The translations under genes and the position numbers were made by a program. Under the pieces are notes generated by a model, which worked only from the letters and a program-made list of their open reading frames with translations, ran no database searches and was not told the origin of the DNA. A stretch of DNA of 64,000 nt from Escherichia coli. Its GTDB lineage: Bacteria; Pseudomonadota; Gammaproteobacteria; Enterobacterales; Enterobacteriaceae. Location: NCBI RefSeq assembly GCF_003334255.1, contig NZ_QOWU01000004.1; one strand, 5' to 3'. Shown in pieces: positions 46,511-48,865 of this stretch. The first letter of the stretch is position 1. Each line of letters begins with the position of its first letter.

Positions 46511-46746
46511 GATAGTGCCCTTTTTCTGAGATGGAAAAAGGGTGTCATTCAAAATCGACATACCTTCCTTTAAGGTATTTATTTGCCCAATACATATATT
46601 GAGATTTAACTCATAATTACTTCCTAAAGTGTAATATTTTATTTTTTAATATATACGCCTACAATTTCCTGGAGTAAATAAATAACAATTAACAAGCATA
46701 ATATTGCCATTGATAAAATAGCATGCCATAAAAGGACTTTTCAGGG

Positions 46747-47925
46747 ATGAGTAATATTGTTTACCTGACAGTAACGGGAGAACAACAAGGAAGCATCTCC
46801 GCAGGTTGTGGGACTTCTGAGTCTACAGGTAATCGTTGGCAGAGCGGGCATGAGGATGAAATATTTACATTCTCACTCTTAAATAATATTAATAATACGG
46901 GGCTTGGTTCACAGTTCCATGGTATAACATTTTGTAAATTAATTGATAAAAGCACTCCATTATTTATTAATTCCATTAACAATAATGAACAATTATTTAT
47001 GGGATTTGACTTCTATCGAATAAATAGATTTGGTAGATTGGAAAAGTATTATTATATACAACTAAGAGGCGCTTTTTTATCGGCTATTCATCACCAGATC
47101 ATTGAAAACCAACTGGATACAGAAACAATAACTATTAGTTATGAATTTATCCTCTGTCAACATCTTATCGCAAATACCGAGTTCAGCTATTTGGCACTCC
47201 CTGAAAATTATAACCGTTTGTTTTTACCAAATTCAAAAAACCAAACAAATAATCGTTTCAAAACGTTAAACAGCAAAGCTATTGGCAGGCTACTTGCTGC
47301 TGGTGGCGTATACAATGGGAACATTGAAGGATTCAGAGATACTGCGGAAAAACTGGGTGGAGATGCAATAAAAGGCTATGATCAAATACTAAATGAAAAA
47401 ACAGCGGGCATAGCGATAGCAACAGCATCTATTCTTTTAACAAAGCGTTCTAATGTTGATACATATACAGAAATAAATAGTTACTTAGGCAAACTTAGAG
47501 GTCAACAAAAACTTCTTGATGGTATAGACATAATAGAAATAATATACATTAAGAGACCTTCAAAAGACTTAGCTAACTTACGAAAGGAGTTTAATAAAAC
47601 TGTAAGAAAAAATTTTCTTATCAAACTTGCAAAAACCTCCGAAGCATCTGGAAGATTCAACGCCGAAGACCTTTTAAGAATGAGAAAGGGCAATGTTCCT
47701 CTAAATTATAATGTTCACCATAAACTATCTCTAGATGATGGTGGTACTAATGATTTCGAAAATTTAGTATTAATCGAAAACGAACCATATCATAAAGTTT
47801 TTACTAACATGCAATCACGAATAGCTAAGGGAATATTAGTAGGTGAAAGCAAAATCACTCCCTGGGCCATTCCATCTGGCTCAATTTATCCTCCCATGAA
47901 AAATATTATGGACCACACAAAATGA
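46747..47925 (+). CDS. yhhZ: Hcp-domain protein fused to a C-terminal HNH-type nuclease toxin domain (392 aa); orphan T6SS-style effector
   Basis: N-terminal ~150 aa has Hcp hallmarks (HEDEI, DKSTPLF, FYR); C-terminus carries an HNH-like motif NVHHKLSLDDGGTNDFENLVLIENEPYH; SD aagga 10 bp upstream; very AT-rich. Confidence 0.85.
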   Translation: MSNIVYLTVTGEQQGSISAGCGTSESTGNRWQSGHEDEIFTFSLLNNINNTGLGSQFHGITFCKLIDKSTPLFINSINNNEQLFMGFDFYRINRFGRLEKYYYIQLRGAFLSAIHHQIIENQLDTETITISYEFILCQHLIANTEFSYLALPENYNRLFLPNSKNQTNNRFKTLNSKAIGRLLAAGGVYNGNIEGFRDTAEKLGGDAIKGYDQILNEKTAGIAIATASILLTKRSNVDTYTEINSYLGKLRGQQKLLDGIDIIEIIYIKRPSKDLANLRKEFNKTVRKNFLIKLAKTSEASGRFNAEDLLRMRKGNVPLNYNVHHKLSLDDGGTNDFENLVLIENEPYHKVFTNMQSRIAKGILVGESKITPWAIPSGSIYPPMKNIMDHTK

Positions 47926-48416
47926 TGACTAAAACCCAAATAAATAAATTAATAAAAATGATGAATGATTTAGACTATCCATTTGAAGCACCGCTCAAGG
48001 AATCATTTATTGAAAGTATAATCCAAATAGAATTTAATTCTAATTCAACTAATTGCCTGGAGAAGTTATGTAATGAAGTTAGTATTCTTTTTAAGAATCA
48101 ACCTGATTATCTTACTTTTTTAAGAGCAATGGATGGATTCGAAGTTAATGGATTACGATTATTTAGCCTCTCGATTCCAGAACCTTCAGTTAAAAACCTT
48201 TTTGCCGTAAATGAATTTTATAGAAATAATGATGATTTCATAAACCCTGATCTACAAGAACGGTTAGTGATCGGGGATTATAGCATTTCAATATTTACTT
48301 ATGACATTAAAAGTAACTTTTTTGAAATTAGAGATAATATTGGCACAGAAAATATATTCAGTTCGTTTAGTGATTTCTCTTCATTCTTAAACGAAATCAT
48401 GGACAGTTGTTCATAA
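47922..48416 (+). CDS. yrhA: Putative immunity protein to YhhZ (164 aa, acidic, no signal peptide or TM); intact here
   Basis: ORF MMTKTQINKLIKMMNDLDYPFEAPLKESF...; ATG overlaps yhhZ TGA (ATGA), suggesting translational coupling; immunity role is inference. Confidence 0.75.
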   Translation: MMTKTQINKLIKMMNDLDYPFEAPLKESFIESIIQIEFNSNSTNCLEKLCNEVSILFKNQPDYLTFLRAMDGFEVNGLRLFSLSIPEPSVKNLFAVNEFYRNNDDFINPDLQERLVIGDYSISIFTYDIKSNFFEIRDNIGTENIFSSFSDFSSFLNEIMDSCS

Positions 48417-48510
48417 TAATCAAAAGGAAACAAAAATCATTGTAAACCATGCCATCTTTTTAGAGATTACCAGCAGAAAATTCCTTGTTCGAAATTTAGC
48501 AGTGCAAGCT

Positions 48511-48666
48511 ATGGAAAAACTTACAACGGAACTACACTCCTTAAGTGAGATGGACCGAAGACATGTAGTCTCTATTTTAGCCGAAATAGCTAATGGCTAT
48601 GATGATTTTAATGACATGTTGATTTATTTAGAATTTTACCCGAATCATAAGATTCTGATATCTTAA
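48511..48666 (+). CDS. Small ORF (51 aa) between yrhA and yrhB; possibly the K-12 small gene yrhD
   Basis: ATG..TAA reads MEKLTTELHSLSEMDRRHVVSILAEIANGYDDFNDMLIYLEFYPNHKILIS; weak SD; below the ORF-track length cut-off; assignment uncertain. Confidence 0.35.
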   Translation: MEKLTTELHSLSEMDRRHVVSILAEIANGYDDFNDMLIYLEFYPNHKILIS

Positions 48667-48865
48667 ATAAGAAAATCCCGTTCGACGTTCTGAAAAAGAA
48701 ATCATAAAATATTAGCAGATACTTATTTCGTGACTATATCTTATCCGATGAACTTTTTTCAAAACCAGCATTTAATAATATCTTTGACGAAGATGAACGC
48801 GTCTTTGCTCAATGTATCACACAGGAATAATAATATAACACTCAACAATAATATTTATTATAATT

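Follow-up and report, generated by a model that had tools for sequence, protein, structure and literature searches.

The closest described relatives of the locus analyzed here are Hcp-ET1 and ETI1, the names given to the Hcp-HNH protein of Escherichia coli 55989 and O104:H4 and to the gene downstream of it. Reviews and a preprint report DNase-dependent killing by Hcp-ET1, delivery dependent on T6SS2, a type VI secretion system (T6SS), and neutralization by ETI1, with the reviews tracing the Hcp-ET1 of STEC004, O104:H4 C227-11 and 55989 to Ma et al. 2017, Virulence 8:1189 (PMC6730261; PMC6099711; bioRxiv 10.1101/2024.03.05.583533). The stretch of DNA under study (hereafter the window) comprises 64,000 nucleotides of a K-12-like E. 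coli chromosome, from envZ to livJ, and contains at 46511-48865 an AT-rich islet within the RefSeq gene order yhhY, tssD/yhhZ, yrhA, yrhD, yrhB and ggt. This islet is very likely the central part of a cassette of 2.65 kb (46511-49156) that was acquired horizontally, an orphan T6SS effector locus of the polymorphic-toxin kind, in which yhhZ would encode an Hcp tube subunit with an HNH DNase C-terminus and yrhA the cognate immunity protein.

In strain 55989 the same four genes are found between yhhY and ggt, with YhhZ differing from the protein of the window by one residue (A300T), YrhA by two and YrhB by none. The yhhZ gene (46747-47925, plus strand) encodes an Hcp tube-protein domain (residues 1-147), a linker and a C-terminal HNH DNase domain. 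Its N-terminal part was identified as Hcp (TssD) by TIGR03344 (E = 3.8e-34; 118 bits against a cut-off of 58.9), by the Pfam family T6SS_HCP (PF05638; 2.5e-11) and by a PDB match to Hcp3 of Pseudomonas aeruginosa (3he1; 2.3e-11). The C-terminus yielded a weak Pfam HNH match (i-E 0.013, residues 322-343), and the catalytic motif (47716-47793, plus strand) reads in the translation as H324-H325 ... N335 ... N339/N345 ... H349, with no substitutions there. In line with this, the YhhZ family has been assigned to His-Me finger group 32 (PMC5714182). The start of yrhA (47922-48416, plus strand) overlaps the yhhZ stop codon (ATGA), and its product, probably the immunity protein for the HNH tip (ETI1), belongs to the YrhA family NF038335 (E = 1.7e-35; 122 bits against a cut-off of 55); a Pfam search with YrhA gave no match, nor did a PDB sequence search with YrhA or YrhB. 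The locus therefore contains an Hcp domain, an HNH tip with its catalytic residues and an immunity gene right downstream, as does Hcp-ET1/ETI1, from which no structural difference was found. The strain names strongly suggest that YhhZ corresponds to Hcp-ET1 and YrhA to ETI1, all the more because no second full-length Hcp-HNH family turned up in E. coli.

Zhang, Aravind and colleagues are said to have set out, in 2012, a general model of the Rhs and CdiA polymorphic toxins, with displaced C-terminal tips and arrays of orphan immunity genes. Like such loci, the yhhZ locus combines a conserved N-terminal delivery part and a sharp break at a short motif (AEKLGG) with unrelated tips that each have their own small gene, and presumed older immunity genes are kept downstream. 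Delivery would rest here on a subunit of the Hcp tube instead of the shell of Rhs or the filament of CdiA, and the array is short, consisting of three elements of which two are decayed; orphan toxin-tip fragments were not found. A similar arrangement is known from Usp, the uropathogenic-specific protein, and Imu1-3 ('evolved Hcp'; PMC2907695), where Hcp is likewise fused to a nuclease-type bacteriocin domain, lies away from any T6SS cluster and is followed by small immunity genes. By description, Usp differs from YhhZ in having a pyocin/colicin-like C-terminal toxin and another chromosomal site (PMC2907695).

Next to these chromosomal systems, the YhhZ tip and YrhA resemble pairs of an HNH endonuclease and a YrhA-family gene on IncHI2 and other conjugative plasmids, which differ from yhhZ in lacking an Hcp domain and in having a GC content of 46-51%, matching the plasmid. 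Such pairs were present in 588 plasmid records; among the matches listed, the endonuclease shares 47% identity with YhhZ residues 149-387 and a YrhA-family gene comes after it (examples at L060:3638-5213 and L061:3635-5215). A match of any kind was seen in 591 plasmid records, 489 of them typed as conjugative, and one example, an IncHI2 plasmid, carries the pair next to traG. Three full-length matches labeled as plasmids turned out to be chromosome-sized records (4.8-4.9 Mb) and were rejected. SPbeta-like phages of Bacillus subtilis contain a homolog of the tip alone (residues 244-385, 44-45% identity); two further matches in the phage collection were mislabeled Salmonella chromosome contigs, so that only the distant SPbeta-like tip homologs were left there. 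As the tip-YrhA pair occurs on plasmids and the tip in phages, the module appears to circulate widely, and the YhhZ tip is, judged by homology, common to Gram-negative T6SS and Gram-positive toxin systems. A 4-kb contig labeled as a Flavihumibacter metagenome-assembled genome (CABHOW010000200.1) is 100% identical to E. coli yhhX-yhhY-yhhZ-yrhA-yrhD and almost certainly represents E. coli contamination of that bin.

The foreign origin of the islet is supported by its composition, by its polymorphism among strains and by the empty site in relatives. For the latter, a survey of one genome per species, anchored on YhhY by exact peptide words, yielded 37 loci with ggt downstream; it missed Salmonella, Citrobacter koseri, C. 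freundii and E. fergusonii, and Shigella lay outside the comparison. In 33 of the 37 other Enterobacteriaceae junctions, yhhY and ggt are only 40-128 bp apart. Such empty junctions were found in E. albertii, E. whittamii, Escherichia sp. E1V33, two divergent species representatives labeled 'E. coli' and Citrobacter sedlakii, and further in many Enterobacter, Klebsiella pneumoniae, Lelliottia, Pluralibacter and Huaxiibacter. GC content is normal in the four larger gaps (237-2,865 bp), and homologs of YhhZ, YrhA, YrhB and the DUF4225 protein of another cassette described below were present in none of the 37 loci. Empty E. coli alleles (RM11911, E04) have 59-60 bp between yhhY and ggt and share with E. 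albertii a 29-nt spacer, AGAATTTGCAATCTAAGTTTGTCATTTAA, followed by a terminator hairpin; this common arrangement implies that the empty site is the ancestral state.

In the window, the ancestral spacer is replaced by 2,646 bp running from right after the yhhY stop codon to the hairpin at 49157-49180. This hairpin, detected by a terminator scan and folding at -17.0 and -19.1 kcal/mol, is a bidirectional terminator of ggt and the cassette; it is kept in strains with an empty site and forms the right anchor of the insertion site. The cassette would accordingly have entered the convergent intergenic terminator region of yhhY and ggt in place of the spacer. The earlier note on this DNA had placed the islet between yhhY and yrhB and ascribed it to horizontal acquisition. 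By the junction comparison the right boundary is not yrhB, as the inserted, strain-variable segment runs through yrhB to the ggt terminator at ~49156. Its claim of horizontal acquisition is supported by the 33 empty junctions and by the polymorphism of the site in E. coli.

The composition of the interval is equally distinct. Its GC content is 31.8%, compared with 51.8% in the 10 kb to the left and 54.6% in the 10 kb to the right, and same-length windows elsewhere in the 64 kb average 53.1% (sd 1.9%, minimum 48.4%), so that the interval stands at z = -11.5 and is the global GC minimum of the window. In a 300-bp profile, GC drops from 50% to 37% at 46350-46649, at the yhhY stop codon, stays at 29-36% as far as 48899 and has returned to 48-52% by 48900-49349; the full cassette has 33.6% GC and its flanks 53.4%. 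The GC content at third codon positions (GC3) is 0.24 for yhhZ, 0.22 for yrhA and 0.29 for yrhD, compared with 0.595 +/- 0.054 in the 47 other annotated coding sequences (z between -5.6 and -7.0). A codon-similarity index, derived from the remaining genes of the window and used in place of the classical codon adaptation index, ranks the same three genes lowest of 51 (0.43-0.47 against 0.678 +/- 0.055; z between -3.8 and -4.5), their most frequent codons being AAT, GAA, AAA, ATA, TTT, TTA and ATT.

The sliding-window and codon checks proposed in the earlier note thus gave a profile clearly unlike that of the flanking genes, and its description of an AT-rich islet is confirmed along with both of its spot counts (26.7% GC at 47221-47280 and 23.3% at 48001-48060), as is the dominance of A/T-ending codons in yhhZ and yrhA. 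Its remark that GC is normal again inside yrhB needs correction, as this gene is intermediate (45.6% GC, GC3 0.39-0.40, z = -3.8). The only other stretches of the window below ~40% GC (17300-17700, 61500-61800 and 4600-4800) are the short regulatory intergenic regions malP-malT, livK-panM and yhgF-feoA and not islets.

Among 5,426 complete E. coli genomes, islet DNA was present in 3,836 (70.7%), of which 3,757 carry it nearly completely, always on the chromosome and usually in a single copy. The yrhB gene occurs in 4,069 genomes (75.0%) and is absent from ~25%; by difference, ~230 genomes (~4%) possess yrhB without the islet, for example strain DC71 with the order yhhY, 110 bp, yrhB, ggt. In 343 genomes (6.3%) this site holds an unrelated cassette of the O157:H7 lineage, of 31.8% GC and at least 99% identical in all of them, which consists of a DUF4225 protein gene and a small open reading frame on the reverse strand (L002:2112-3966). 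The remaining ~1,000 genomes (~19%) match empty-type junctions. In the yrhB-only allele, a search upstream of yrhB for leftovers of a toxin tip gave nothing significant, nor did one for residual yrhB sequence within the O157 cassette, and a resemblance of ~30 out of 45 nt near the right end of the O157 cassette was no more than is expected by chance in AT-rich DNA. The presence/absence comparison suggested in the earlier note hence revealed a polymorphic site, as expected for foreign DNA. Universal presence of the islet, which that note had named as speaking against foreign origin, is approached only insofar as homologous cassettes exist at the same site in Citrobacter and Salmonella; the islet is far from universal, and the claim stands.

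The exchange of toxin modules at this site is best seen in a metagenomic E. coli-like contig (L064; ENA ERZ27280761, k141_177484). From yhhX to position 47403, just past AEKLGG, its identity to the window is 98.6%; the contig then contains a Gln_amidase tip and, directly after it, a 94-aa Imm35 gene, and its homology to the window is back at 48862, four bases 5′ of the yrhB start. Given these breakpoints, the segment 47404-48861 (plus strand), which in the window comprises the HNH tip, yrhA, yrhD and a pseudogene, is an exchangeable toxin-tip/immunity module. The stem common to both alleles includes the non-coding AT-rich leader 5′ of yhhZ (46511-46746, plus strand; 29.7% GC), which in uropathogenic E. 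coli (UPEC) 536 is 97.5% identical. Since the flanks of L064 differ in their identity to the window (98.6% on the left, 92.8% on the right), the contig is a mosaic. Its YrhB deviates from that of the window over the first ~30 residues and is nearly identical beyond them, pointing to another breakpoint within yrhB. The Gln_amidase tip of this rare L064 allele was found in none of the 5,426 complete E. coli genomes.

Similar replacements are seen in other genera. The closest YhhZ homologs outside E. coli, 71-73% identical, are those of C. koseri and C. freundii, which likewise lie between yhhY and ggt and are followed by YrhA orthologs of 66-68% identity. At the same site, C. freundii, C. portucalensis (with a Gln_amidase tip) and Salmonella enterica contain Hcp fusions with the same ~225 N-terminal residues and unrelated C-termini; the Citrobacter and Salmonella cassettes have 38-43% GC and their flanks 54-56%. 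In an alignment of six proteins from this site, identity is 63-93% per 30-column window in the first seven windows (columns 1-210) and then, in three of five comparisons, drops to 37-53% in the next and to 7-30% after about column 230, placing the break in the protein at about residues 225-230. The cassettes of the C. freundii complex contain an extra 294-aa gene between yhhY and the Hcp toxin gene (L009:5845-6729, L056:4845-5729, L058:4848-5732), the product of which has a signal-peptide-like N-terminus and no precomputed Pfam match on record; a relationship to the O157 DUF4225 protein was considered and rejected, as the two show no similarity.

Downstream of yrhA, three small elements look like stacked orphan immunity genes, a role assigned to them from their position. 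The first of these, yrhD, is annotated at 48511-48666, but in-frame homology extends upstream, so that the element spans 48424-48666 (plus strand) and appears to be a 5′-decayed, presumed orphan immunity remnant: in tblastn, 48424-48648 in the yrhD frame matched an 84-aa gene located after a Salmonella Hcp toxin (40% over 75 aa, E = 7e-15), and in UPEC 536 yrhD has an internal stop. The second is an unannotated pseudogene at 48669-48827 (plus strand), truncated and with an in-frame stop, which by tblastn is similar to an 85/86-aa gene right after another toxin tip of C. freundii (49% over 53 aa, E = 1e-14). The third, yrhB (48866-49150, plus strand), is intact and a member of the variable cassette, and its product belongs to Imm35 (Pfam E = 4.6e-23), an immunity family of polymorphic toxin systems. 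Citrobacter Imm35 proteins encoded at the same site share 71-74% identity with YrhB, and in C. portucalensis, as in L064, an Imm35 gene directly follows the Hcp-Gln_amidase toxin. The simplest reading of this order would be serial displacement, in which each incoming tip brought its own immunity gene and older ones stayed downstream, leaving yrhD (decayed), the pseudogene and yrhB (Imm35, intact) behind.

Regarding its age, the acquisition is old and not recent, the islet being common to deep E. coli lineages at 96-98% identity in phylogroup B2; it may have preceded the E. coli phylogroups or spread across them. In UPEC 536 (B2), yhhZ and yrhA are 97.3-97.8% identical to the window and the flanking genes 93.7-96.7%, and synonymous divergence (dS) is 0.05-0.07 for islet genes compared with 0.10-0.23 for the flanks. 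The ratio of nonsynonymous to synonymous divergence (dN/dS) is 0.44 for yhhZ, 0.18 for yrhA and 0.37 for yrhB, compared with 0.03-0.12 in the flanks; constraint on the islet genes is thus relaxed, not absent. The immediate neighbors yhhY (46022-46510) and ggt (49188-50930) are 93.7% and 94.6% identical to their UPEC 536 counterparts (yhhY dS 0.23), and yhhW, yhhX and yhhA are less divergent (96.3-97.5%). The high divergence of yhhY and ggt around a low-dS islet may reflect recombination or long-lived alleles around a hotspot. A recent, lineage-specific import into the K-12 lineage, for which nothing but the strong compositional contrast speaks, can practically be dismissed, as the islet is present at 96-100% identity in 71% of complete E. 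coli genomes including B2 strains.

With respect to H-NS, Table 1 of a study on promoter islands lists yhhZ and yrhA as two of its 78 islands, both bound by H-NS in the ChIP-chip data sets of Kahramanoglou and Oshima (column H 'K' for both), overlapping a GIST island and foreign according to Nakamura and Lawrence (PMC3661553), and a second study marks H-NS as having a site in the spacer that lies upstream of yrhD (PMC3946193, Table 3). The proposal of the earlier note that the islet is an H-NS target agrees with this published occupancy. High-affinity H-NS motifs with at most two mismatches number 74 in the window (61 +/- 9 expected) and 9 in the islet, as its AT content predicts. The AT-rich DNA would nucleate H-NS filaments and keep the cassette transcriptionally quiet in laboratory culture, a silencing that we infer from the published H-NS binding; expression data from hns mutants for the islet were not found in the literature.

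K-12 lends indirect support to low expression. From 45400 to 49900 it is identical (100%) to the window save for an IS1E element. This 768-bp insertion, flanked by the 9-bp target duplication GACATTAAA, lies at 48303-48311 within yrhA, so that in K-12 an intact toxin gene stands beside a disrupted immunity gene, and the window is without it. Quiet expression would allow K-12, which has no T6SS, to tolerate this combination. In other strains one or two copies of IS1, IS3 or IS5 occur in the islet, where insertion sequences and split genes are frequent, and the cassettes of C. portucalensis and Salmonella contain IS1 or another transposase; insertion sequences seem to collect in the AT-rich cassette as in a sink.

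Several observations weigh against a horizontally acquired and silenced cassette. A scan of the whole window for tRNA genes found none, no integrase open reading frame is present in it and no direct repeat was detected at the junctions; such hallmarks of mobility are typical of larger islands and not required for an islet. A search for a donor identified none, the Citrobacter homologs being the closest outside E. coli. The lower dS of the islet may stem from later spread by recombination or, equally, from a lower mutation rate of AT-rich DNA, in which case it would not reflect a younger age. As for silencing, a sigma-70 scan detected 15 promoter-like sites in the islet compared with 12.1 +/- 3.8 in shuffled sequences and hence no excess; set against the published promoter islands (PMC3661553), this means that the island property may just be AT-richness. 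Moreover, RpoD holoenzyme binds two spacers of the locus in vitro (PMC3946193), and a review mentions induction of yhhZ in biofilms, which argues against complete silence.

The alternative that survives best, though we consider it somewhat unlikely, concerns the AT-richness itself, which could have been made or kept in place by GC-to-AT mutation bias in a poorly expressed locus together with selection for H-NS binding as a means of silencing a dangerous toxin gene; this is compatible with a foreign origin. It would explain why the shared stem (Hcp and linker) has a GC3 of 0.28 in E. coli and 0.47-0.52 in Citrobacter and Salmonella though the proteins are 63-93% identical in 30-residue windows, and why no amelioration is seen though the islet is common to phylogroups A and B2. 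The HNH tip and yrhA are, however, equally AT-rich in all three genera (GC3 0.24-0.28), and the unrelated O157 cassette has the same low GC content as the islet, both of which fit a circulating gene pool that is AT-rich to begin with. E. coli may have received a more AT-rich version of the stem, or its copy may have drifted towards AT in place.

It is unlikely that the cassette is not silent and instead represents an expressed, working weapon-and-shield module whose AT-rich DNA is merely rich in promoters. The RpoD sites, the reported biofilm induction and the killing of competitors by the near-identical Hcp-ET1 in Shiga toxin-producing E. coli would fit such a module, as would the dN/dS values below 1, which indicate some purifying selection. 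On the other hand, both promoter islands are occupied by H-NS in K-12 (PMC3661553), K-12 lives with an intact toxin gene beside an immunity gene interrupted by IS1E, insertions and split genes are common in the islets of other strains, and the promoter-like sites do not exceed those of shuffled sequences.

Even less probable is that the common ancestor of Escherichia, Citrobacter and Salmonella already had the cassette at the yhhY-ggt junction and that the empty sites are secondary deletions. That C. koseri, C. freundii, C. portucalensis and S. enterica have homologous cassettes at precisely the same site speaks for this scenario and against acquisition, and the cassette proteins, 65-76% identical to those of E. 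coli where flanking proteins are 85-96% identical, would be in accordance with long residence and fast evolution. It would nevertheless require that the 33 empty junctions, among them those of all four Escherichia lineages other than E. coli and of two species of Citrobacter, arose by loss, and that every loss was exact, given that empty E. coli and E. albertii have the same 29-nt spacer and hairpin. The GC3 gap of the stem between the genera also speaks against a simple vertical descent of the cassette.

Further features and searches add to the description of the cassette. Directly 3′ of the yhhY stop codon, the islet contains a stem-loop (46517-46543, plus strand; RNA fold -15.3 kcal/mol, z = -3.1) which has no T-run and is thus no canonical terminator; the cassettes of C. 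koseri and C. freundii show other hairpins at this position. A reading of the locus as an anti-phage defense island was rejected, since a PADLOC search with YhhZ, YrhA, YrhD, YrhB, the DUF4225 protein of the O157 cassette and the 294-aa protein of Citrobacter gave no match. Equally rejected was the assignment of yhhZ-yrhAB to methionine-to-cysteine conversion (PMC3309015, Gist34 section), which does not fit the domain content and appears to be a confusion with the B. subtilis genes of the same name. An Rfam scan of 44-51.5 kb detected RyhB alone, which lies outside the islet: the gene of this small RNA is located at 45807-45871 (minus strand) between yhhX and yhhY, to the left of the islet (RF00057; 83.1 bits, where the gathering score is 55), with a terminator-like hairpin at 45832-45814. 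A sub-threshold match to a eukaryotic snoRNA at 48216-48312 was taken as chance in AT-rich DNA. Near the right end of the window, livJ (~62662-63765), taken at the coordinates of strain 1223, gave no clean translation, so that the window differs there from this strain by an indel or shift.

Drawing these lines together, we tentatively propose, as a possibility rather than a probability, that the yhhY/ggt terminator is a hotspot shared by Escherichia, Citrobacter and Salmonella for a single lineage of Hcp-fused polymorphic toxins with toxin-immunity modules swapped at AEKLGG, that former tips have left their trace in layers as yrhD, the pseudogene and yrhB, that the intact YrhB (Imm35) may still protect even E. 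coli lacking a T6SS from neighbors with Hcp-Gln_amidase toxins, and that the extreme AT-richness of the E. coli copy (stem GC3 0.28, about 0.5 in the other genera) was kept or raised in place under H-NS silencing instead of ameliorating.

The literature already covers the islet along with its foreign character, H-NS binding and toxin-immunity function, and the basic claim is textbook material, with the islet on published lists of foreign genes and of H-NS targets; what is added to this, in a modest way, are the breakpoints of the module swap and the reading of yrhD, the pseudogene and yrhB as orphan immunity genes. The locus shows cleanly how modules are swapped in a natural Hcp-fused toxin, and three K-12 elements without an assigned function, namely yrhD, yrhB and the unannotated pseudogene, may now be read as orphan immunity genes. 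It also shows that one chromosomal site can be used repeatedly across genera without a recognizable mobility gene, and it provides a testable case for whether foreign DNA controlled by H-NS fails to drift towards the composition of its host.

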